From Enterobacteria phage vB_EcoM_IME338: DNA of 64,000 nt. Below, piece by piece: positions 7,043 to 57,996 of this stretch; position 1 is the first letter of the stretch, and every line of letters starts with the position of its first letter. Location: sequence record MH051914, one strand, 5' to 3'. Position numbers and translations under genes: made by a program. Under the pieces are notes generated by a model, which saw nothing but the letters and a program-made list of their open reading frames with translations, was not told where the DNA came from and searched no databases.

Positions 7043-7063
7043 AAGACCAATTTAGGTCTTTTT
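7043..7063 (+). terminator. hairpin plus short T-run inside tRNA array (terminator or processing site)
   Basis: aagacc-aattta-ggtctt followed by ttt. Confidence 0.35.
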
Positions 7064-7142
7064 AGAGGGCTTCTAAGGTTATTACAGCTTGTTGTGGAAC
7101 CTTGTTGCTTAGGTTCTTAGAAGTTCTCTAAAAAGATTTAAT

Positions 7143-7219
7143 GCACCTATAGCCCAACTGGTAGAGGCAGCAGACTTAGAATCTGCTCAGTGTGAGTTCG
7201 AATCTCTCTAGGTGTACCA
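7143..7219 (+). tRNA. tRNA-Leu (anticodon TAG), class I-like short variable arm
   Basis: Acceptor gcaccta/taggtgt, anticodon stem gcaga/tctgc loop cttagaa, 5-nt variable loop, TTCGAAT T-loop, A73, CCA. Confidence 0.55.
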
Positions 7220-7226
7220 AATTAAT

Positions 7227-7302
7227 GCAGGTGTAGCAAAATGGTTATGCGGCTGACTCTTAATCAGTAAGACGATGGGTTCAATTCCCTCCACCTGTAC
7301 CA
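7227..7302 (+). tRNA. tRNA-Lys (anticodon CTT)
   Basis: Acceptor gcaggtg/cacctgt, anticodon stem gctga/tcagt loop ctcttaa, TTCAATT T-loop, CCA. Confidence 0.7.
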
Positions 7303-7308
7303 AACATT

Positions 7309-7384
7309 GGGGTCATAGTTTATATGGTTAAAATTCGAGTTTTGCAAACTTGGGAACTGAGTTCAATTCTCAGTGACTCCACCA
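7309..7384 (+). tRNA. tRNA-Ala (anticodon TGC)
   Basis: Acceptor ggggtca/tgactcc, D-stem gttt/aaat, anticodon stem cgagt/acttg loop tttgcaa, T-arm ctgag-TTCAATT-ctcag, CCA. Confidence 0.65.
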
Positions 7385-7390
7385 ATTAGT

Positions 7391-7465
7391 GCATCCATAG
7401 TTTAAACGGGAAAATTACAGTCTTCCAAACTGAGGTTGAGGGTTCGATTCCCTCTGGATGCTCCA
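7391..7465 (+). tRNA. tRNA-Gly (anticodon TCC)
   Basis: Acceptor gcatcca/tggatgc, anticodon loop cttccaa, T-arm gaggg-TTCGATT-ccctc, CCA. Confidence 0.7.
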
Positions 7466-7472
7466 AATTAAT

Positions 7473-7549
7473 GCTGCTTTCGTATAATTGGCTATTACAC
7501 ATCCCTTGTAAGGATGGAAATGCAGGTTCGAGTCCTGTGAGCAGCACCA
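7473..7549 (+). tRNA. tRNA-Thr (anticodon TGT)
   Basis: Acceptor gctgctt/gagcagc, anticodon stem catcc/ggatg loop cttgtaa, T-arm gcagg-TTCGAGT-cctgt, CCA. Confidence 0.7.
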
Positions 7550-7553
7550 ATTC

Positions 7554-7640
7554 AGAGGTCAAGTGAAAGACCGCTGGTGTCAACTGAAGACCGTAACAAA
7601 TTCCACGGAGTTGAGTTAGCGGCACAACTTCAGACCTCTT
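7554..7640 (+). repeat. inter-tRNA hairpin element, variant copy (CAGAGGTC...GACCTCT)
   Basis: 5' agaggtc pairs with 3' gacctct enclosing about 70 nt; same architecture as CAGAAGACC...GGTCTGG elements. Confidence 0.5.
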
Positions 7641-7644
7641 TCAT

Positions 7645-7719
7645 ACTCGCTTAGTTTATATGGTAAAACACCACCCTTACAAGATGAAGAAAAAGGTTCA
7701 AGTCCTTTAGTGAGTACCA
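7645..7719 (+). tRNA. tRNA-Val (anticodon TAC), weak anticodon stem; possible pseudo-tRNA
   Basis: Acceptor actcgct/agtgagt, D-stem gttt/aaac, loop cttacaa but anticodon stem only 3/5 paired, T-arm aaagg-TTCAAGT-ccttt, CCA. Confidence 0.35.
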
Positions 7720-7720
7720 T

Positions 7721-7799
7721 GTTCCAGTATCCCAATTGGCAGAGAGGCCAGACTTAAAATCTGTGTTATGTATCGGTTCGAATCCGATATGGAGTACCA
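7721..7799 (+). tRNA. tRNA-Leu (anticodon TAA), short variable arm
   Basis: Acceptor gttccag/atggagt (6/7 with wobbles), anticodon loop cttaaaa, T-arm atcgg-TTCGAAT-ccgat, A73, CCA. Confidence 0.5.
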
Positions 7800-7804
7800 A
7801 ATTT

Positions 7805-7880
7805 AGCGGTATAGCATAACTGGCAATGCAACAGTCTCTGAAGCTGTCTTATTAAGGTTCAAATCCTTATGCCGCTGCCA
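7805..7880 (+). tRNA. tRNA-Gln (anticodon CTG)
   Basis: Acceptor agcggta/tgccgct, anticodon stem acagt/gctgt loop ctctgaa, T-arm taagg-TTCAAAT-cctta, CCA. Confidence 0.7.
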
Positions 7881-7911
7881 CTTCTAAGGATTCTTACGAG
7901 AGTCCTTAAAT

Positions 7912-7987
7912 GTGGCCTTATCATAAATGGTAATAACCCATGCTGTGAACATGGTCTATACGGGTTCAAATCCCGTAGGTCACCCCA
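7912..7987 (+). tRNA. tRNA-His (anticodon GTG)
   Basis: Acceptor gtggcct/aggtcac, anticodon stem ccatg/catgg loop ctgtgaa, T-arm acggg-TTCAAAT-cccgt, CCA. Confidence 0.65.
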
Positions 7988-7992
7988 ATTTA

Positions 7993-8069
7993 TAGTCCAA
8001 GTAGCTTATATGGTTAAAGCGCGTGTCTGAAAAACATGAGAAGAGGGTTCAAATCCCACTGGACTACCA
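7993..8069 (+). tRNA. tRNA-Phe (anticodon GAA)
   Basis: Acceptor tagtcca/tggacta, anticodon stem cgtgt/acatg loop ctgaaaa, TTCAAAT T-loop; 3' end register uncertain by 1-2 nt. Confidence 0.6.
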
Positions 8070-8085
8070 ATTTCAAAGGTGCTTA

Positions 8086-8820
8086 ATGAAAGAGATGACA
8101 GAACAAGGTAAGGAGATTTTTAATCTCTTAAAAACCGGTAGAGGGTTTTCTAATCCCCTTATTACTGGTGCAGCAGTTCTCGGTGGAACCGTAGCTGCCT
8201 CTACATCACTTATAAGCTCTATTAGCTCTGTAACAGACCCTACAATAAAGGATAAACTTGTTGCTGCTGGACTGACAACAGTTCTGCTTAACAGCTTTAC
8301 AACGAGCCTGACAAGCACTACATCAACCACTAAGACATTGACAGACTACGGTCAAAAGTCTATTGATGAGTTTTCATCACGTATGCAGGTAGCAAAAGGC
8401 TATTCTAATGTTATGGGTGCAGCAGGAGAGCAAGTTGGTTGTACACCATTTAGTGGTATTATGGGTGTTGCTACAGAGTATGGTCAAAAAGCTATTGACA
8501 CAATTAACAGTGCACTAGATGGTGTTAATGATGTATTAAGCGACTTACAAGATGCTATTGATAAAGGTCTTGATACTATTTCTGATTTAGCTAACCAAGC
8601 TGTTAGCAAGATTAATGAAGGTATCTCAAAGATTACAGCTTATGCAGATGAAGTTGTGCAGATGATTGAAGAAGAAGCTGCCCTTATTGCAGAGTACCTT
8701 AAAACGAATATCAATGGGTTCTTAGCAGGTATCTTACCAGACTGGTTTGACGATGCTTGTAAAACTGGTGTAATTGATACTATTGCAACACCAGAAATGA
8801 AGAACGCATTACAGAAATAA
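8086..8820 (+). CDS. hypothetical Ser/Thr-rich protein with one hydrophobic segment, embedded between tRNA genes
   Basis: ORF 8023..8820 trimmed to ATG 8086 because upstream part overlaps tRNA-Phe; hydrophobic stretch PLITGAAVLGGTVAASTSLI. Confidence 0.5.
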   Translation: MKEMTEQGKEIFNLLKTGRGFSNPLITGAAVLGGTVAASTSLISSISSVTDPTIKDKLVAAGLTTVLLNSFTTSLTSTTSTTKTLTDYGQKSIDEFSSRMQVAKGYSNVMGAAGEQVGCTPFSGIMGVATEYGQKAIDTINSALDGVNDVLSDLQDAIDKGLDTISDLANQAVSKINEGISKITAYADEVVQMIEEEAALIAEYLKTNINGFLAGILPDWFDDACKTGVIDTIATPEMKNALQK

Positions 8821-8821
8821 T

Positions 8822-8914
8822 GGAAGATTAACCCTAAAAGGTAAGGGAGCAGTTTGCTAAACTGCCAGTAGCTGAGAAATCGGTGTACCAGTTCAAGTCT
8901 GGTATCTTCCTCCA
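8822..8914 (+). tRNA. tRNA-Ser (anticodon GCT), long variable arm
   Basis: Acceptor ggaagat/atcttcc, anticodon stem gcagt/actgc loop ttgctaa, long variable arm, T-arm accag-TTCAAGT-ctggt, CCA. Confidence 0.7.
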
Positions 8915-8918
8915 ATTT

Positions 8919-8994
8919 GAATCCGTGACAGAAATGGATATGTGCCTGTCTGCAAAACAGGTTTATAAGGGTTCGAGTCCCTTCGGATTCTCCA
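8919..8994 (+). tRNA. tRNA-Cys (anticodon GCA)
   Basis: Acceptor gaatccg/cggattc, anticodon stem cctgt/acagg loop ctgcaaa, T-arm aaggg-TTCGAGT-ccctt, CCA. Confidence 0.7.
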
Positions 8995-37263: not shown

Positions 37264-38364
37264 TTATTCGTAATCTCGTATAACTAACCCAACAGGGAAC
37301 TGTAAAGAACCCTTACGAGTCATCTTCTGGAACTGAACCGTTAAAGGCTTCCCGATAAACTCTTCAGGATGCTCAGCAAGATACTGTTTCTTCTCATGAG
37401 TAGTCTTCCATGAGACATCTACAAAGACGTTAGGAAGAGTCTCTACAACGAACTTGCCATGACCACGCTTATCAGTCTTTACACCAGTCACTTTAAACTC
37501 TTCAGTGTGCATCTTCTTATGCTTAATCAAGAAGTATGAACGGTGACAACACTCATAGAAGGAGTCTTCAGAGATTGAACGGTACATTGCACCTTCAAAC
37601 TTAGCTTCAACCCACTTATCATGAGCTTCATCAAACTCTTCCCAAGAGTTAACACGGATAGTCTGTACAGGAACAACTCTACAGGTATCACCAAGCTCAA
37701 TAATGGGTGAGTTATCAATAACTTCACGACGCTCAGGCCAAGTTTTTGAATTGTCACAGATATCATACCAGTAGAATTTAAGAAGGTGACGTTCTGGGTT
37801 GTCAGCATTCTTAATCATAGACACAATATCTTCTAAGTCCCAACCATGAGCATAAATCTCACCATCAAAGTCTTCGACTTGTGGATGTAATTTAAGCAAC
37901 AAAAGCAAATCTGGGATTAGTTCTGCTGGGACGTTGTAAACAGTATTCTCACGAGAATAAGCCGTGAAGCTAACTGAATCAGCATCTCTTGAAATTCTAC
38001 AACGTACACCGTCAAGTTTTGGTTGAGCATCAGCAGGGAACTTCAGATACTTTGCATGGCTAACCTTTGCAGCATCATGAGCAAGTTGTACACCAACCTT
38101 CTCAGTGTTCTGTGCAGACTCTTTTGTGTAAGCATAACCTTTGCGGTCAACTTGCTTTTTATACTTAGCAGCAACTTCAAAGAGAGCTTGCTGTTCAGCG
38201 TTACGCTCATTCTTTTTACCGATGTTTTTAGGTTCTGCTGTATACTCTTCAAACATCATCTTGCCATTTTCTTTACCATACGTGGTAACAACTTTGTCAC
38301 CTACAGCAACACATGACCAGACGTTGAAAGAGCCGTCTTTATTTTGTTTGTACAGAATTGTCAT
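37264..38364 (-). CDS. ATP-dependent DNA ligase
   Basis: 366 aa; adenylation motif KLDGVR (KxDG), size typical of T7-type ligases. Confidence 0.85.
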   Translation of the reverse strand: MTILYKQNKDGSFNVWSCVAVGDKVVTTYGKENGKMMFEEYTAEPKNIGKKNERNAEQQALFEVAAKYKKQVDRKGYAYTKESAQNTEKVGVQLAHDAAKVSHAKYLKFPADAQPKLDGVRCRISRDADSVSFTAYSRENTVYNVPAELIPDLLLLLKLHPQVEDFDGEIYAHGWDLEDIVSMIKNADNPERHLLKFYWYDICDNSKTWPERREVIDNSPIIELGDTCRVVPVQTIRVNSWEEFDEAHDKWVEAKFEGAMYRSISEDSFYECCHRSYFLIKHKKMHTEEFKVTGVKTDKRGHGKFVVETLPNVFVDVSWKTTHEKKQYLAEHPEEFIGKPLTVQFQKMTRKGSLQFPVGLVIRDYE

Positions 38365-38795: not shown

Positions 38796-38846
38796 ATAAC
38801 CTCCTATATAAGATATTGTATAATATACTCTTCCATGAGCACCTTG

Positions 38847-39379
38847 TCAAGATAGTTTTGCAAACTCTCCGTGGAGTTTTATAGTGGCTTCACAGTAAGC
38901 TTTATGGGCTTCTTCAGGTGTGTCATGATAACCTAAAAACATCTTCTTACCTCTATAACTTATCTGTGCGACCCACCTACCAGACTTCTTCTTAAGACTT
39001 ACACCCTTGTACCCAGATTTATTGGTGACTGGCTTACCTTTATTCCAAGCACTTTGAAAGTCATCTGCTTCCCTTAAGTTTACAATCCTGTTGTCAAGTG
39101 AGTCTCCGTTGATATGGTCAATGATACTTTTGGCATCTTGCCATACACGTAAAGCCATGCGAGTCTGTGTGCTTTATGTGCTTTCTTGTCAAAATAGATA
39201 CTAATCTGTTTATGACCACTTGAATCAGTCTGGATATTACCTGCCACCTTTCCTGCATAATTACTGTTAAAAACACTAACAGCTCTTGATTTACCTTCTC
39301 TACGAAGCCAAGTAAAGACCCCTGTTTCGGGGTCATAGCGTAGCAGCTCCTTTAAACGTTTTTGTAAAATAAAATCCAT
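38847..39379 (-). pseudogene. HNH-AP2 homing endonuclease gene interrupted by a 1-nt frameshift (pseudogene or sequencing error)
   Basis: Upstream frame [14 protein letters not shown]; downstream frame [22 protein letters not shown] plus AP2-like YKGVSLKKKSGRWVAQISYRGKKMFLGYHDTPEEAHKAY; frames meet at A/T run near 39116-39123. Confidence 0.7.
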
Positions 39380-39382
39380 TAA

Positions 39383-39939
39383 TCAATGTACCTCATACCA
39401 GCTCTTACCAACCTTTGCTGTACCAGTTACAAGTGTTTCTTTCCTCAAGCCTAAGTTTTTTGAAGCTTGCCCATACATCCAGTCAGCAATTGCTTTCATA
39501 TCATGTGTCATACCCTCTGGGCATTCCCAACTATTTTCGTCGTGATATGCCAGAAGTAACCTTGCTCCGATAGCTGGTTTTCGAGCATTCAGTTTTGTCA
39601 GGCCATCTTCACAGGCTTTTCTTGCTGCTAGGTTGATGGCTTCATTCTGAATCTGTGCTTCCGAACTCATCAGGAGGTAGTTCAGTAGTTTATGTGGAGA
39701 TTTGCACCATATCCATGCTCCAGCGACCCTGATATAACCACCTTTAGCAATTGAAGAGTTCTTCCCAAAAACCTCTTCCAGAGCCTTTTTAGACGCCTTA
39801 AAATCAGCTTCTAAGCTATCAAGTAACTTCTTAATCTTTGGTAAACGCATATAGTAAGTTTGTTTAGTCAATGCACCTTCTTCCGTAGATGATGCCTTGA
39901 TAGTTTTTGCAAACTTCTCATCGCCAGCCCCGAACAATA
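39383..39939 (-). CDS. DNA polymerase (family A, T7 gp5-like), exon 2
   Basis: Encodes motif B remainder FGAGDEKFAKTI and motif C LLAYHDE; ends ...WYEVH as in T7-type polymerases. Confidence 0.85.
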
Positions 39940-40207
39940 CATCTGGTCAATACACTCGCAAGGTGTACCAGTTCTCTTATGAACTTCTCCGCATTTCTAC
40001 GGAGTGTCGGACTATATCACGTAGCAGTGATGCTACCGTTGCACTTGGGGATGGTCATTAGCTTACCACCCTACTCTACTCAGTTCATACGTTAAGTATG
40101 CTTTTCGATAGTCTCTGAACGTTCCTCTTAAGAGGCTTCGCTGCTGATTACCATATCTTTCCAGACTTAGGCTTCCAGCAATTCACAACGTTTTACATGC
40201 GCCACTG
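39940..40207 (-). ncRNA. group I self-splicing intron (ORF-less, 268 nt) within DNA polymerase gene
   Basis: Exon 1 ends GCG U; internal guide GCGCAU pairs AUGCGU of exon; R-like GUUCAGAGACUA and S-like GAUAUAGUCCG elements; intron ends G; splicing restores AKNGIYALLFGAGDEK. Confidence 0.8.
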
Positions 40208-42350
40208 ACGCATAAATGCCATTTTTGGCTTTCTTACGACCTTTTGTAATCTCGTGAAGAAGCTCCTCATCCTGCGTCTCCCTACAACGAACAATATCAT
40301 CTTCCTTGTTTAGACCGAAGTAAATACTATTCAGTGTATGTGCATCAGTACCTGTGTAGACTTCGTAGAGGTCATTCTCAGCATCATAACGAAGATACTT
40401 ATCAGTTTCTGGATTGAGGTACTTATCGAGATGCTTGCAATAGTATCTTCCATCCTCTTGCTTGGTAAATTCTACTGACTCTTTACCTTCAGTTACCGCT
40501 TTGGTGAAGTCTTTATCACCCATAAAGTTACACAGTAAAACAAGCTGTGCAGAGTTCTGGTCAACTGAAACGATATTAGTCCCTTCCTCGCAAATCCACA
40601 CCTCCCTCATAGGTGCTCCATAGACAGCAGCACCAGACGGTACGTTTACAATACCATATTGTGTCATACGTCCAGTTGAAGTACCAAACACCATTGCACC
40701 AGCACTAAGGCGACCATCAGGACGAATCTGGTTCAACCAACCTTTTTCATCATCCTTTGAGTTCTCAATAGTTCTGCGTCGGTGCATCAAGGTATAGTAT
40801 TTCGCAATCTTCTGTCCAAGCTCACCTTCAATCGTATCATAAGATGATTCAGTAAGTTTTGGTGAAGTACGGATTAAGCAAGGCTCAAGCAAATCTGTGT
40901 ACTTCTTCACAGACCAGTTATGCTCAATGTACTGGACACCTTCGTGTTCAACATAACTCAAACCACACCGTTCCACCATCTCATCCCATTTAGGATGCTT
41001 TGTAATCATCTTTTTGTTGTCTTTGAAGCGACAAACCTTAACAGGACGACCATCAGAGTCTTTCTTATAGTTCCAGTCATCTGGAATCCAACCAACTGAT
41101 TTCAAGTAGTCTTTAACAACTGCTACCTGAGTCATACGAGAAACTTCGAACTCAATTGGTGTATATGGTGCATCAATCAAACCTGTGTAGCGACTTGACT
41201 CAAGTTCAAAGTGGTTAACAACATGACTGTTATAGTACTTCACAGTCTTAACTGTTTTTACTGGCTTCCAGTCTTTGCATTTCTTACCAATCTTTGCATT
41301 CAACTCATTGCAAATTGCACGAGCATCCTTCATTGCTACAAAGCCTTCCTTGTACTCTTCACCAGTTACCGAGTTGGTTGGTGTATAGCAATTCCGCTTT
41401 TCAATGTTAAAAATCTTTGTAGTTGGCTTACCAAATGGCTTGATTTCATATGTCTGCATCTCACCGTTACGTACCTGTTGACGATACTTTGTCTTAGGGT
41501 ACTTGGTAATTCTCTTCAGTCCATCTGCATGACCAAATGCTTCAACATACTCATTCCAAGCTTTTGCAAATTCTTCTCCAGTGACTTTACCTTTGGTCTT
41601 AATAGTTGGAGGAAGATGTGGTTCAACTTCTGAAGCAAGCTCGTTAGTCAACTTGTCAAGTTCCTTTACATGGAACTCCATAAGCTCTTTATCAGCTTTC
41701 CAACCATTGATAGCCTGTTGACTCATCCAGAAAGATGTTTCTTTAGCTCGCATGTAGGTTTCATAGGTGTCTACGCCACACTTCTTTAGCTTCAGATATT
41801 CATTATCCAATGCACGTTTAGTTTTGGCGTTAATACGGATATCTTCCACAACACGAGTGAAGATTTCTGCATTCCACACACCCCAATGTTCAATCTCTGG
41901 TTTACGGACACCAACACGAGCACCCCATGCTGCCAAGCCATGAGCACCTTTATAGCCTTTTGGAGTTGGTCTATCCATCCACTGAACACGAGACTGGATA
42001 AGAGAATCCTGAAAGAAATTACTCCACGGCTTACACTTTGGATTATCAAAGTTCCACAAATCGGGTGCAATGTGATTGAAAACCCACCAGTCATAACCGA
42101 GACCGTTATGGATGCAAAGACGTTTTGCCTTTAACGCAAATTCAACACCTTCACGTAAACCACCCTTAATGTACTTGGTATACTTGTGACCGAGGATAGG
42201 TTCATCTGTAAAGACCCATACAGGTGGCTCTTCATCGTCAGATTTATAGTCTGCGAAAGCCATTACGTGCACTTTAGTGAACTCAAGGAGTAAACCATCA
42301 GTTTCTGTATCACCAACTAAATGTAAGTTTTTAAAATCTACGTTTTCCAT
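40208..42350 (-). CDS. DNA polymerase (family A, T7 gp5-like), exon 1
   Basis: 3'-5' exonuclease motif LVGDTETDGL; motif A IVSVDQNSAQL; start of motif B RKKAKNGIYA; start set at MENVDF after GAGGGAG RBS. Confidence 0.85.
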
Positions 42351-42410
42351 TTTTACTCCCTCTAAAATCATTAACCTCATACATTACTGCAAAAAATTAT
42401 AAAAAGCAAG

Positions 42411-55535: not shown

Positions 55536-56732
55536 ATGAACAAAGTACAGATTATTAAAAAGAATGGCTCACTTGAAGAACCGGATATCAAAAAAGTTTT
55601 AACAGCAGTAACTAAGTCAGCTAACAGGGTTGGTTATAAAGAACTCCCACCAGATGTTATCCAAGCTCTTGAGTCAGCATTTATGAGGATTCTGGTAAAA
55701 TCCACTAAGCAGAATAACTTGCTCATCTCGGTAAATGATATCCACAGTATCGTTGAAGGTGCTTTGGCAGAAGTCAATCACGAGATTTATGAGTCTTACT
55801 CAACATATAGAAATTACCGTAAAGAAGTTGCTCAAAATTGGGATGAGCTTTACCAAAAGACCAAAGACACACTCTTCTTAGGTGACCGTGAAAATGCTAA
55901 CTTTGACAGCAGTTTAATTTCTACAAAAGGTTCAATTATTCGTGGTTACCTGACTAAAGAAATCTTTAAACAGTACCATTTAACACCAGAGGAACTTGAA
56001 GCCATTGAAAAAGGGTTTATCTACATCCATGACTTAAGAGACCTAATTTTTGGTGGTATCAACTGTTGCCTGTTCGACATTGGTAAAGTACTGAAAGGTG
56101 GCTTTGAAATGTCTGGCATCGAATACTGCGAACCTAAATCTGTGCTGTCAGCCTTACAGGTTATTGGTGATGTAGTTCTTTCAGCAACTGCACAGCAATT
56201 TGGTGGTTTTACTTTAGCAGAGATTGATAAGGTACTTGTACCGTATGCTAAGAAATCTCTACGCTATCATGCTGAGAAAGCAGCATCCTACGGTATTCCT
56301 AAAGAACATTACCACAATTATGTCATGGAGCAGCTACAGATTGAACTGACTCAAGGTTTCCAGTCACTTGAAATGAAACTAAATACTGTACCTTGTAGTC
56401 GTGGGGATTTTGCATTCACAACTTTGACATTCGGGTTACTTGACTCAGATATGTCCAATGAAGATAACCGACTGCAATATATAATTGCAAGTACTCTCCT
56501 AGATGTTCGTATGAATGGACAAGGTAAGAGCAAAAAGCCTGTTGTATTCCCTAAACTGGTTTATATTTATGACCAGAAGAGACATAGTGAGAATATCTGT
56601 CAAGGACACCTGTACAGTAAAGCCATTGAGTGTTGCTCTAAAGCAATGTATCCAGATTTCTTAAGTGTATCTGGTCATGGTGCTGTAGCAGAGGCTTTTG
56701 AGCGTTCTGGTAAGGTTATTTCACCGATGGGT
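55536..56732 (+). CDS. nrdD: anaerobic ribonucleotide reductase (class III), exon 1
   Basis: N-terminal ATP-cone; exon ends ...VISPMG, continued in exon 2 as CRAFL matching the conserved PMGCR(S/A)FL of NrdD. Confidence 0.85.
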
Positions 56733-57048
56733 TAACAAGCTCTATAGCTCATCTAAAACGTGCCTAAACAGGGAAACTCTACAGATGTAGACAATCCTGT
56801 GCTAAATGATGTACGATGTAAGAAACTATACAACATAGGAGTCTTACATGCCAAACAACTTCGAATATGAGTTTGAATACATCTAAATGCCGAACGACTA
56901 ACCGTGATGAATGTAGCGGTGTAGGGTCAAGCGACTCGAAATGGTACGCTACTTAGAAATAAGTAGAAGATATAGTCTGGACTTACTGGTGACAGTAAGC
57001 AGCTTGAATAAAGCGGGGTAAGTGTAGCGAACTTATCTGAACAACAAG
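56733..57048 (+). ncRNA. group I self-splicing intron (ORF-less, 316 nt) within nrdD
   Basis: Exon 1 ends GGU; guide GCUCAUC pairs GAUGGGU; P/Q-like CCUAAACAGGGAAACUC...GACAAUCCUGUGCUAAAU, R-like ACGACUAAC, S-like AAGAUAUAGUCUGG; ends G at 57048. Confidence 0.8.
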
Positions 57049-57996
57049 TGTAGAGCATTTTTATCACCATACCATAATGAAGATGGTGAAGAATTTTATG
57101 TAGGTCGCGCTAACATCGGTGCTGTATCTTTGAACTTGCCAATGATTTACCAGTACTCTAAAGAGAATGGTTTAGATTTCTGGAAAGAGCTTGATAAGTA
57201 CCTAGAAATGATTCGTAGCTTCCACAAGAAACGCTACGAAATGATTGCTAATATGCCAGCAAGTTCTAACCCTCTTGCATTTACACAAGGTGGTCTGTAC
57301 AAAGGGACTAAGAAACCTACTGACAAGGTTGGCTGGGATATCGTGAAGTCCTTCACAGCTTCTTTTGGGGTTACTGCTCTTGATGAGCTGTCTGTTCTTG
57401 CTGAAGGTAAACGACTTCATGAAGTTGGAAGTTCTAGTTTTGCATACGATGTTCTGGCATACATCAACATGAAAACTGAAGAGTTTAAAGATGAAGATGG
57501 CTTCTTATATGCCGTATATGGCACTCCAGCAGAATCACTTTGTGGAACTCAGCTAAAACAGTTCAGAGATATGTTTGGAGTTATCAAGGGTGTTTCTGAT
57601 AAAGAATACTTTACAAATAGTTTCCATATGAATGTTGCAGCAGATATCTCACCATTTGAGAAGCAGGACTTAGAAGAACCCTTCTTCCATATCTGTAGAG
57701 GCGGCAGAATCCAGTATGTAAGGGTAGCTAATCCAGAAAACTTATCAGCACTTAAAAGTTGTATTACAAGAGGGATGTTGAAAGGTTTCTATCAGGGACT
57801 TAACTTTGACTTAGCAATCTGTGAACATTGTGGTAACAGACCAAAGGCTGATGTTGAAGAATGTGAGGTTTGCCATTCACATGATATTTCTGTGATTAAC
57901 AGGGTGTGCGGGTACTTGTCATTCACAAAAATTAAAGGTCAGTCTCGAATGAATGACGCTAAGATGGCAGAAATTAAGGATAGGGTTTCTATGTAA
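57049..57996 (+). CDS. nrdD: anaerobic ribonucleotide reductase (class III), exon 2
   Basis: Frame open from 57028; CRAFLSPYHNEDGEEFYVGRANIGAVSLNLP; C-terminal Cys4 cluster and glycyl-radical motif RVCGYL. Confidence 0.85.
   Translation, partial: CRAFLSPYHNEDGEEFYVGRANIGAVSLNLPMIYQYSKENGLDFWKELDKYLEMIRSFHKKRYEMIANMPASSNPLAFTQGGLYKGTKKPTDKVGWDIVKSFTASFGVTALDELSVLAEGKRLHEVGSSSFAYDVLAYINMKTEEFKDEDGFLYAVYGTPAESLCGTQLKQFRDMFGVIKGVSDKEYFTNSFHMNVAADISPFEKQDLEEPFFHICRGGRIQYVRVANPENLSALKSCITRGMLKGFYQGLNFDLAICEHCGNRPKADVEECEVCHSHDISVINRVCGYLSFTKIKGQSRMNDAKMAEIKDRVSM

Follow-up and report, generated by a model that had tools for sequence, protein, structure and literature searches.

The window analysed here is a stretch of 64,000 nucleotides from Enterobacteria phage vB_EcoM_IME338 (sequence record MH051914), which is a Felixounavirus (Felix O1-like myovirus). 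Its DNA polymerase is of family A and is encoded on the minus strand in two parts. Exon 1 occupies 40208..42350, as judged from the ORF list, a weak match to Pfam DNA_pol_A and alignment to intron-less genes of 900 amino acids. Exon 2 occupies 39383..39939; its product matches positions 218–381 of DNA_pol_A and aligns to residues 517–621 of T7 gp5. Between the two lies an insert of 268 nt (39940..40207, minus strand), and a frameshifted gene for a free-standing HNH(HNN)-AP2 homing endonuclease follows at 38847..39379 on the same strand, its start codon 4 nt past the polymerase stop.

Exon boundaries

The minus-strand ORFs that cover the polymerase halves run over 40167..42380 and 39383..39937 in the ORF list. 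The original prediction took them for parts of one gene separated by 268 nt, and alignment to the intron-less alleles of phages CRP22 and HY02, in which a single CDS encodes 900 amino acids, bore this out with a gap of exactly 268 nt. We placed the start of exon 1 at 42350, the annotated start in SLAM_phiST56, a 98%-identical phage. Counted from there, exon 1 comprises 714 codons and the first base of codon 715 and ends in GGC AUU UAU GCG U; exon 2 opens with UA UUG UUC GGG, supplying the last two bases of codon 715 and 184 further codons before the stop at 39383..39385. Among the junctions tried, 40208|39939 alone restored the intron-less protein sequence (...AKNGIYALLFGAGDEK...), with a shift of one nucleotide in either direction giving AVLF or ASLF. 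The restored stretch at the joined exons reads ...NGIYALLFGAGDEK..., also given as ALLFGAGDEK, and a ligated mRNA would read ...GGCAUUUAUGCGU|UAUUGUUCGG... across the junction. In this comparative test, the protein predicted for the joined exons was colinear with the intron-less 900-aa homologues, from which it did not differ at the junction.

The insertion site is codon 715, which falls within motif B (the O-helix). The restored motif aligned to T7 gp5 with zero gaps, confirming the proposed equality of length. The interrupted codon is equivalent to F528 of T7 gp5, or about position 764 of the E. coli enzyme, and the helix is broken between the equivalents of T7 Y526 and Y530. As predicted, a U (40208) ends exon 1 and a G (39940) ends the insert, and the exon-1 reading frame soon meets a stop: a UAA at 40169..40167, 13 codons inside the insert. 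That stop, together with an insert length of 268 nt that is not a multiple of three, led us to reject an intein.

Ribozyme fold

A covariance-model search, which had been proposed as a check on the group I identity of the insert, returned Rfam model RF00028 with 62.2 bits against a gathering score of 50 (E = 2.3e-13). The aligned span, 39987..40270, wrongly takes in bases of exon 1 and misses the 3′ 47 nt of the intron. The intron begins with CAGUGGCGCAUG and ends in ...ACCAGAUG, the terminal G being at 39940; intron position n corresponds to window position 40208 − n. Direct pairing identified an internal guide region at 40197..40207 (minus strand) that carries strands of both P1 and P10. The predicted guide sequence, GCGCAU (intron 6–11), pairs with AUGCGU of exon 1 at six of six positions, with a U.G pair (U40208 opposite G) at the 5′ splice site, and CAGUG (intron 1–5) pairs at all five positions with UAUUG, the first five bases of exon 2. 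This region is unchanged across the intron-bearing alleles of every exon haplotype, and P1 is invariant in eight natural variants.

The R-like and S-like core elements that had been suspected were both found, as GUUCAGAGACUA and GAUAUAGUCC. Both align to the Rfam model, and they pair as P7 (GACUA at 40109..40113 with UAGUC at 40010..40014, 5/5). Rfam alignment, a pairing check and the minimum free energy (MFE) fold place the catalytic core, consisting of the P7 5′ strand, P7.1, P7.2, the P3 3′ strand, P8 and the P7 3′ strand, at 40010..40113 on the minus strand. In the helix map all helices from P3 through P9.2 are paired, the P3/P7 pseudoknot included. P2 is absent, and the extra hairpins P7.1 and P7.2 lie between P7 and P3′ at intron positions 108–122 and 137–160. 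P6 is a short hairpin, CCUC-UUAA-GAGG (40124..40135, minus strand), delimited by the alignment of intron forms and by a compensatory change from C-G to U-A.

The MFE fold independently recovered P3, P4, P5, P6, P7.1, P7.2, P8, P9 and P9.1. Its z-score was weak (−1.76, with 7 of 200 shuffles folding equally well), and we therefore rested the identification on the covariance model and on comparative pairs. In eight distinct natural variants, 584 of 584 pair cells were paired (100%), compared with 29–45% in slid controls. The Felixounavirus copies vary little, so that support from covariation consists of compensatory C-G/U-A changes at two pairs, in P6 and P8, and of three wobble changes. Variation in P7.1 and P7.2 keeps the pairing through wobble, and the L5 tetraloop is a GNRA in all three of its variants (GGAA, GUAA and GAGA). 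The intron was also correctly described as ORF-less: the sense strand within 39940..40207 holds zero ORFs of at least 20 amino acids. Antisense ORFs of 54 and 62 amino acids cross the intron (a hypothetical protein in phage L27), and we dismissed them as chance ORFs in a conserved ribozyme.

On these sequence comparisons, the insert in the polymerase gene is a genuine, ordinary group I intron with boundaries exact to the nucleotide. By inspection rather than by a formal classifier, we assign it to subgroup IA2, for which the presence of both P7.1 and P7.2 speaks. We infer that it splices and that splicing depends on guanosine. The polymerase is split inside the O-helix and about 96 viable isolated phages carry the insert, for which splicing would have to work; moreover, the exon bases for P1 and P10 are kept in every intron-bearing allele, whatever its haplotype, which makes sense only if splicing is selected.

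A gene in pieces would be another way to account for the arrangement, with exon 1 translated unspliced as far as the UAA, exon 2 translated from the UUG at 39937, and the two polypeptides assembling into an enzyme. Most GenBank records do show two DNA polymerase CDSs, exon 2 does have a UUG codon at its start, and split functional phage enzymes exist, such as the Aeh1 ribonucleotide reductase (cited in PMC3322345). However, the insert has all the parts of a group I ribozyme, with P1 and P10 fitted to these exon ends and their exon partners preserved among all haplotypes. No Shine-Dalgarno-like sequence occurs in the 15 nt before the UUG, where the bases are UAUUGACCAGAUGUA, and the polypeptides would be divided inside the O-helix. 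The annotators of phage Meda joined both pieces. We consider separate translation extremely improbable.

Alleles among related phages

A scan of IMG/VR gave 16 related loci and was supplemented by BLAST sampling of GenBank phages. The same intron is present in about 96 public phage genomes, approximately one third of the sequenced relatives, and takes three forms: the ORF-less form of the window, a form with an Endonuclease VII-family ORF in the P6 loop, and a remnant left by deletion of that ORF. The ORF-bearing intron, found in JH2, EC6 and many others, is 802 nt long; its P6-loop insert measures 534 nt and contains a 160-aa ORF of the Endonuclease VII family (Pfam Endonuclease_7), which is intact in both copies compared (dN 0.148, dS saturated). 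The 311-nt intron of phage Mushroom is, from the alignment of forms, a true ORF-deletion remnant. Variation between forms was read from a multiple alignment; a pairwise MAFFT alignment of the 802-nt and 268-nt introns had the first 72 nt out of register, with apparent variation that was spurious. In the literature searched we found no published description of this intron. Its traces are "two introns" in an ncRNA scan of SPJ41 and a joined CDS in the Meda record.

The ORF-less intron could be the decaying relic of an invaded one, that is, a post-homing remnant whose endonuclease gene was deleted at the end stage of the homing cycle. ORF-bearing forms occupy the same site, Mushroom demonstrates that ORF deletion does occur here, and the core haplotypes 158C/176C/183G and 158U/176U/183A each have ORF-less and ORF-bearing members. 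We nevertheless think this history unlikely. The 268-nt form carries no residue of an ORF or of an extended stem. Its P6 is one compensatory pair away from the P6 of ORF-bearing introns and equals the short P6 hairpin, AAGCCUC..GAGGAA, of the outgroup introns in the N4-like phages MIF8 and ZQ2. A single P6 sequence is common to all ORF-less copies, whichever core haplotype they have, a pattern better explained by recombination inside the intron than by the same deletion happening repeatedly. By parsimony with the two outgroups, the short P6 of the window intron appears to be the ancestral, never-invaded state.

The ribozyme is 97.6–98.9% identical between genomes whose flanking exons are 72–85% identical. 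A 100-nt identity profile against ten relatives, refined in 60-nt bins, delimited a diverged haplotype block of approximately 1 kb (39383..40650, minus strand), made up of the last ~450 nt of exon 1 together with exon 2. The block includes the insertion site and abuts the HNH gene, and in it identity to B-type relatives is 72–85%, as against 93–100% in the remainder of the polymerase gene. Between the window and intron-less CRP22, differences are confined to about −24 to +25 nt of the junction, where the window sequence is that of ORF-bearing JH2; in Meda, the haplotype switches exactly at the intron. Conversion tracts as short as these, with the insertion site at their centre, suggest homing. 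At the pol and nrdD loci of the genus, intron-less, ORF-less and ORF-bearing alleles segregate independently. The window also has an nrdD intron, as does T4.

Neighbouring endonuclease gene

We delimited the HNH-AP2 gene by alignment with the intact 177-aa genes of ST56, CRP22 and HY02. The window copy has lost one nucleotide near 39127/39128, where CCAAAAGGTATC has become CCAAAAGTATC (GG to G), and is inactivated by the loss. The deletion lies just upstream of the catalytic DH..N..N motif and splits the gene into ORFs of 99 and 103 amino acids; frameshift aside, identity to the intact genes is about 98%. The neighbour had been predicted to be a decayed HNH endonuclease gene. It is indeed frameshifted and immediately downstream of the polymerase, but "decayed" overstates the condition of a gene that has lost one base. 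After repair of the frame, the translation matched Pfam HNH_3 (E = 9e-15, amino acids 69–104) and then AP2 (E = 3e-11, amino acids 122–171), and it contains the HRLAW, DNR and NLRE boxes described in PMC2248197. The sibling phage MBP4696116 has an independent nonsense mutation in the gene, and intact copies are under purifying selection (dN/dS about 0.1–0.25). We also considered whether a −1 ribosomal slip on CCA-AAA-G might restore the frame and set the idea aside as speculation without support. The HNH-AP2 gene is a separate, free-standing selfish gene at a polymerase-end site.

The layout had been taken as a hint that the HNH enzyme mobilises the intron in trans. In such collaborative homing, HNH-AP2 would cut intron-less alleles at or near the motif-B site, and the ORF-less intron would spread together with the HNH gene by repair. 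The intron, or A-type exon sequence, would shield the donor genome, paralleling the T3 gene 5.3/PhiI intron and cyanophage psbA. The pathway is established in other systems (reviewed in PMC3984707), and in T3 an HNH gene directly follows the polymerase gene. The HNH gene lay downstream of seven of seven sampled ORF-less introns and of all four 268-nt loci fetched, and its intact copies are under the purifying selection noted above. In addition, the diverged ~1-kb block reaches from the HNH site to past the insertion site and accompanies HNH allele A, as would be expected if a break made by the HNH enzyme had led to a long co-conversion tract.

However, the same HNH allele (96–98% identical) adjoins intron-less polymerase genes, in CRP22, HY02, L006 and L008, as well as intron-containing ones. 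Among 42 evenly spaced relatives, the HNH gene was present in 12 of 16 intron-bearing and 15 of 26 intron-less genomes, an association short of significance (p = 0.33, in Fisher tests that shared ancestry confounds). The seven of seven for ORF-less introns corresponds to p = 0.07 uncorrected for shared ancestry, with carriers that are nearly clonal, and half of the ORF-bearing introns are missing the neighbour. Because the HNH allele occurs equally often beside intron-less genes, the hinted trans-mobilisation is without support. HNH allele B, moreover, occurs with the very insertion-site sequence of HNH-less genomes, and the tract that separates the window from CRP22 is ~50 nt long, centred on the insertion site, and stops short of the HNH gene. 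The window HNH gene is itself frameshifted. We also rejected it as a close relative of T3 gp5.3, to which it had 12 of 28 identities around the catalytic motif (E = 0.005 in a single comparison). Homing driven by HNH-AP2 is, in our judgement, improbable.

A broader scheme would make the last third of the polymerase gene the target of three independent selfish elements: the motif-B ribozyme, the Endonuclease VII-family gene of the P6 loop, and HNN-AP2. HNN-AP2 would cut the same ~1-kb block, with the ORF-less intron carried along and/or selected as protection. We give this scheme little credence. If true, it would be a second natural case of "convergence on one target" after T3 gene 5.3/PhiI, in a different polymerase motif and phage family, and the pathway would be that of the birth of mobile introns.

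Discussion

The explanation in which we have high confidence, taken as a whole, is that codon 715 of the polymerase gene is interrupted by a group I intron in its ancestral, ORF-less form, most likely spread with the aid of ORFs in sibling introns, and that the HNH-AP2 gene is a separate element. Under this explanation, the polymerase would be transcribed as a single pre-mRNA in which P1 forms between the guide sequence and the last bases of exon 1, with the U.G pair marking the cleavage site. P7 would hold an exogenous guanosine that attacks the 5′ splice site, P10 would position exon 2, and ligation after the terminal G would give a polymerase of 899 amino acids that matches the uninterrupted enzymes of relatives exactly at the junction.

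The window intron has no endonuclease gene and therefore would be unable to move by itself. We propose that a homing endonuclease gene of the Endonuclease VII family (His-Me finger) entered the P6 loop in sibling phages, and that ORF-bearing introns may supply a cut at intron-less alleles in mixed infections, by which both intron forms would spread. ORF-bearing siblings are the most likely source of that cut, and their Endonuclease VII-family gene is a likelier and more economical mobiliser than HNH-AP2.

These findings bear on the annotation of the genus. Most Felixounavirus GenBank records list two "DNA polymerase" CDSs where a single joined CDS is called for; some annotators only, for example those of Meda, have joined them. 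The statement in the founding Felix O1 paper that the group has no introns fails for about one third of relatives. Three intron sites in the family-A polymerase genes of phages are listed in the literature, and motif B is a fourth. With over 250 sequenced genomes of coliphages and Salmonella phages that are easy to grow, and with adjoining HNN-AP2 genes, the genus constitutes a large natural experiment usable for the study of the homing cycle, of the invasion of introns by endonucleases, and of collaborative homing. Conceptually, nothing here is new: the intron behaves as expected of a familiar class whose elements Rfam detects routinely.

One close structural comparison is with the T4 introns in td, nrdB and nrdD/sunY and with RF00028, with which the polymerase intron shares a P1 with U.G, the P3/P7 pseudoknot and the GUUCAGAGACUA and GAUAUAGUCC elements. 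As in the T-even introns, extra hairpins separate P7 from P3′, P5 and P9 are capped by GNRA loops, the last base is a G, and the setting is a conserved gene of nucleotide or DNA metabolism in a virulent phage. Unlike them, the intron lies in another host gene and at another site and has neither P2 nor an ORF; in T4, td and sunY encode I-TevI and I-TevII.

Published intron sites in phage family-A polymerases, in E. coli Pol I numbering, are 674 (SPO1, SP82, Bastille and Pf-WMP3), 676 (phiL7) and 881 (PhiI and W31) (PMC3428280). Those introns are likewise of a self-splicing type, interrupt a highly conserved Pol A motif and are associated with endonucleases of the His-Me/HNH superfamily. The motif-B site, however, is none of the three, and the sibling endonuclease belongs to Pfam Endonuclease_7 rather than to the I-HmuI/I-BasI/I-TslI type, the window copy having none.

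In the T3 gene 5.3/PhiI I-TslI intron and cyanophage psbA systems, a free-standing enzyme cuts at the intron site (Bonocora & Shub 2009; Zeng et al. 2009, as summarised in PMC3984707). With the T3 system the window shares an HNH-family gene immediately after the polymerase gene, and some genomes have an ORF-less intron in the polymerase gene itself. Here, in contrast, such a cut is hypothetical, the co-occurrence shows no clear specificity, the window HNH gene is frameshifted, and its likeness to T3 gp5.3 is confined to the neighbourhood of the catalytic motif. The HNN-AP2 genes of the Xanthomonas phages Xp10, OP1 and Xop411 (PMC2248197) have the same HNH_3 and AP2 domains, the same HRLAW, DNR and NLRE boxes, and a comparable series from intact to degenerate copies. 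They differ in phage group and in site, and degeneration in our case is at its very first step, with the frameshift in the window and the nonsense mutation in MBP4696116.

Finally, the lysin intron of Streptococcus thermophilus phages occurs at one site as a full-length, ORF-bearing form and as shorter deletion derivatives (Foley et al. 2000, as cited in PMC11878797). It resembles the polymerase intron as one widespread intron with ORF-bearing and shorter forms at a single site; in contrast to it, the shortest form of the polymerase intron appears to be ancestral, and only the 311-nt form is clearly a deletion product.

A group I intron interrupts the polymerase gene

The DNA polymerase is encoded, as originally predicted, by two minus-strand ORFs, exon 1 (40208..42350) and exon 2 (39383..39939), separated by 268 nt (39940..40207). 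We set the intron boundaries by comparison with intron-less alleles. The polymerase of CRP22 and HY02 is a single CDS of 900 aa, and comparing these genes with the window left one gap of exactly 268 nt. Joining 40208 to 39939 is the sole register that gives ...KNGIYALLFGAGDEK..., as in the intron-less proteins; moving the junction by one base yields AVLF or ASLF. The last base of exon 1 is U and that of the intron is G; the exon-1 frame meets a UAA 13 codons into the insert, which holds no sense-strand ORF of at least 20 codons. The group I covariance model RF00028 matched 39987..40270 (-) with 62.2 bits (gathering score 50, E = 2.3e-13). These coordinates are not the intron boundaries, as the 5′ end is pushed into exon 1 and the last 47 nt are missed, and the alignment is sound over the P3–P9 core.

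Direct base-pairing bore out the proposed guide sequence: intron GCGCAU pairs at 6/6 positions with exon AUGCGU (P1), with U.G at the cleavage site, and intron CAGUG pairs at 5/5 with exon-2 UAUUG (P10). P3, P4, P5/P5a (GNRA loop), P6, P8, P9 (GAAA loop), P9.1 and P9.2 are also complementary; P2 is absent from this map. The proposed R-like and S-like core elements are present as a complementary P7 (GACUA/UAGUC) in a pseudoknot with P3, and P7.1 and P7.2, both lying between P7 and P3′, are complementary as well. Phage IA-type introns are characterized by such extra P7.1 and P7.2 hairpins, and we assign the intron to this type by inspection only. An unconstrained MFE fold independently recovered most helices, with a z-score (-1.76) unimpressive alone. 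When ten intron copies from different phages (8 distinct sequences) were aligned, 584/584 pair cells were standard pairs, with a C-G to U-A double change in both P6 and P8 and wobble changes in three pairs; sliding the 3′ partners by 1–3 columns as a control reduced pairing to only 29–45%. The L5 loop was always GNRA (GGAA, GUAA or GAGA). Because variation is limited, this pair conservation corroborates the covariance-model match, short of independent proof. The insert is a genuine, structurally complete group I intron with boundaries exactly as proposed, and it is almost certainly self-splicing.

Antisense ORFs of 54 and 62 codons cross the intron (window 39897..40095 (+); 1309..1497 of the phage L27 locus, L024). 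One is annotated in phage L27 as a hypothetical protein, almost certainly a spurious call inside the ribozyme.

Annotation of the locus in related phages

By megablast, 260 phage records match 38800..42400, nearly all of them Felixounavirus, the Felix O1-like myoviruses infecting Salmonella, E. coli and Shigella. The top match, Salmonella phage SLAM_phiST56 (98.3%), has three minus-strand annotations here, DNA polymerase, DNA polymerase and HNH endonuclease, and most records likewise carry two separate polymerase CDSs. The Felix O1 genome paper describes one 906-aa polymerase and an absence of introns (PMC3185647). Our literature search found no publication on this intron. An ncRNA scan in the SPJ41 paper lists "two introns" and in the Meda record the polymerase pieces are joined, so the intron had been noticed only implicitly.

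Elsewhere in the window, a tRNA cluster of ~21 genes (4990..8990 (+)) fits the 22–23 tRNAs reported for Felix O1-like phages. Felixounavirus polymerase/intron sequence (88–96% identity) is also present in MG065664 and MG065668 ("Campylobacter phage A132/A126") and in GU169904 ("Staphylococcus phage SA1"), which are probably mixed or mislabelled assemblies.

Intron forms and their origin

BLAST with the intron alone found a full-length copy at ≥90% identity in ~96 records, out of roughly 260–300 Felixounavirus-level records. Four allele classes occur: the intron-less polymerase; the 268-nt ORF-less intron of the window; a ~802-nt intron whose 160-aa ORF is annotated "endonuclease VII" (Pfam Endonuclease_7, E 1e-19); and a 311-nt intron (Mushroom, Tf, NS7). 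The 160-aa ORF occupies the loop that caps an extended P6 stem. The 311-nt form is an ORF-deletion remnant, because it retains this stem and has the sequence immediately preceding the ORF fused to the last ORF codons. The P6 of the 268-nt form is short (CCUC-UUAA-GAGG), one compensatory pair apart from the ORF-bearing stem. It matches the P6, likewise short and ORF-free, of the nearest ribozymes outside Felixounavirus, those of Erwinia phage MIF8 (L027 2455..2702) and Escherichia phage vB_EcoP-ZQ2 (L026 460..703), which score 94 and 92 bits with RF00028. The most parsimonious reading is that the ORF-less form was never invaded and that the Endo VII-family ORF arrived later. The window intron is an ORF-less, probably ancestral-type member of a polymorphic, mobile Felixounavirus lineage. 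Two ribozyme core haplotypes exist, and because each includes ORF-less and ORF-bearing members, the sequences indicate recombination within the intron.

The MIF8 and ZQ2 introns are unannotated and interrupt an RNAP2-like RNA polymerase gene in these N4-like phages (Schitoviridae); 3′ of its core, each carries an ORF of ~215 aa.

Evidence of intron mobility

The ribozyme is 97.6–98.9% identical across genomes whose flanking exons are just 72–85% identical. Every intron-bearing allele, regardless of exon haplotype, reads ...UAUGCGU|UAUUGUUCGG... at the junction, precisely the bases with which P1 and P10 form; at these positions intron-less alleles have different synonymous codons. The window is 98–100% identical to intron-less CRP22 throughout the gene, apart from a stretch of ~-24..+25 nt around the junction, where it is identical to ORF-bearing JH2: a short tract of co-conversion with the insertion site at its center. 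In Meda, the exon haplotype switches exactly at the intron. The Endo VII-family ORFs of JH2 (L002 3212..3694) and EC6 (L029 1613..2095) are both intact at 160 aa and 79% identical in protein (dN 0.148, dS saturated), and are old genes that have been maintained. Their nucleotides are 73% identical and the surrounding ribozyme 97.6%, and therefore ORF and ribozyme have had very different histories or rates. The exon/ribozyme contrast, the shared P1/P10 partners, the tract, the Meda switch and the maintained ORFs point to breaks at the insertion site. The endonuclease borne by sibling introns is the obvious candidate for making them, its activity and target being inferred.

The neighboring HNH gene is a separate selfish element

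The original prediction also hinted that the adjoining HNH-AP2 gene (38847..39379 (-)) mobilizes the intron in trans. Such collaborative homing has been reviewed (PMC3984707), and in T3 an HNH gene immediately follows the polymerase gene; the window and T3 HNH proteins have the motif neighborhood alone in common, although the analogy is real. Across 23 fetched loci, the window's HNH allele (96–98% identical) lies beside three further 268-nt introns but also beside four intron-less genes. Six more intron-less genes and the introns of Meda and Mushroom have different HNH alleles as neighbors, and a further six intron-less genes and JH2's ORF-bearing intron stand without HNH. In an evenly spaced sample of 42 records, an HNH neighbor accompanied the 268-nt intron in 7/7, the 311-nt intron in 1/1, the 802-nt intron in 4/8 and the intron-less gene in 15/26. 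Fisher p values, uncorrected for the near-clonality of the 268-nt carriers, were 0.33 (any intron), 0.07 (268-nt form) and 1.0 (802-nt form). HNH allele B occurs with the same insertion-site sequence as HNH-less genomes. Intron-less genomes of the window's A-type exon haplotype with intact HNH exist, and therefore the intron is not needed for self-protection. A functional partnership with the HNH gene is unsupported, though still conceivable.

What keeps the partnership idea alive is a diverged block. For the first 1.7 kb of the polymerase gene the haplotypes are 93–100% identical; identity falls to 72–85% from ~40650 to the gene end, and recovers downstream of the HNH site. This sharp ~1-kb block (~39383..40650 (-); exon 2 and the final 450 nt of exon 1) includes the insertion site, abuts the HNH gene and goes together with HNH allele A. 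A long conversion tract seeded by an endonuclease acting in the region would look similar; the block does not show that the cut lies at the intron site. A second mosaic patch (~37600..38000 (-)) lies in the DNA ligase gene (37264..38364), with 66–83% identity to CRP22, JH2, HY02 and SP116 in surroundings of 91–100%.

The HNH gene was described as decayed. It is frameshifted, appearing as two overlapping fragments, but by the loss of a single nucleotide (GG to G following CCAAAA, shortly before the catalytic motif; a true deletion or a sequencing error) rather than by long decay. Once this base is restored, the gene encodes 177 aa and combines an HNH_3 with an AP2 domain; the protein also has the HRLAW, DNR and NLRE boxes known from free-standing HNN-AP2 endonucleases of phages (PMC2248197). 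The frameshift occurs in 0/5 other copies, the gene being intact there in ST56, CRP22, HY02, L27 and REP9. Salmonella phage MBP4696116 inactivates its homolog (L023 248..781) independently, by a TGG to TGA nonsense change (…HRLA*LYVYG…), and dN/dS is ~0.1–0.25 among intact copies. Because of the one-base defect, the intact relatives, the independent knockout and this dN/dS, we consider HNH-AP2 to be a functional selfish gene in the population, now and then knocked out, and no long-decayed relic. It is an element separate from the intron, with a single inactivating frameshift.

A second intron in nrdD

Rfam gave a second group I match (55.9 bits) at 56675..56999 (+), splitting nrdD (anaerobic ribonucleotide reductase) between ORFs 55536..56735 and 57130..57996. 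This intron too is ORF-less and, measured against intron-less relatives, ~316 nt long. Relatives have the same three states (record spans 885, 1201 and 1627, of which the longest includes an HNH homing endonuclease ORF), which segregate independently of the polymerase intron: CRP22 is intron-less in the polymerase and ORF-bearing in nrdD, and EC6 is the reverse.

The insertion site

As predicted, motif B of the spliced protein (GRKKAKNGIYALLFGAGDEK) aligns ungapped with T7 gp5 (TRDNAKTFIYGFLYGAGDEK). The split codon, 715, corresponds to T7 F528 in the O-helix (motif B), between Y526 and Y530. Taking the standard T7/Klenow equivalences K522=K758, Y526=F762 and Y530=Y766, it falls at ~764 of E. 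coli Pol I. Published phage Pol A introns lie at 674 (SPO1, SP82, Bastille, Pf-WMP3), 676 (phiL7) and 881 (PhiI, W31), and therefore the motif-B site is missing from that list (PMC3428280). The polymerase intron is a new member of a well-known intron class, at an insertion site new to published lists.
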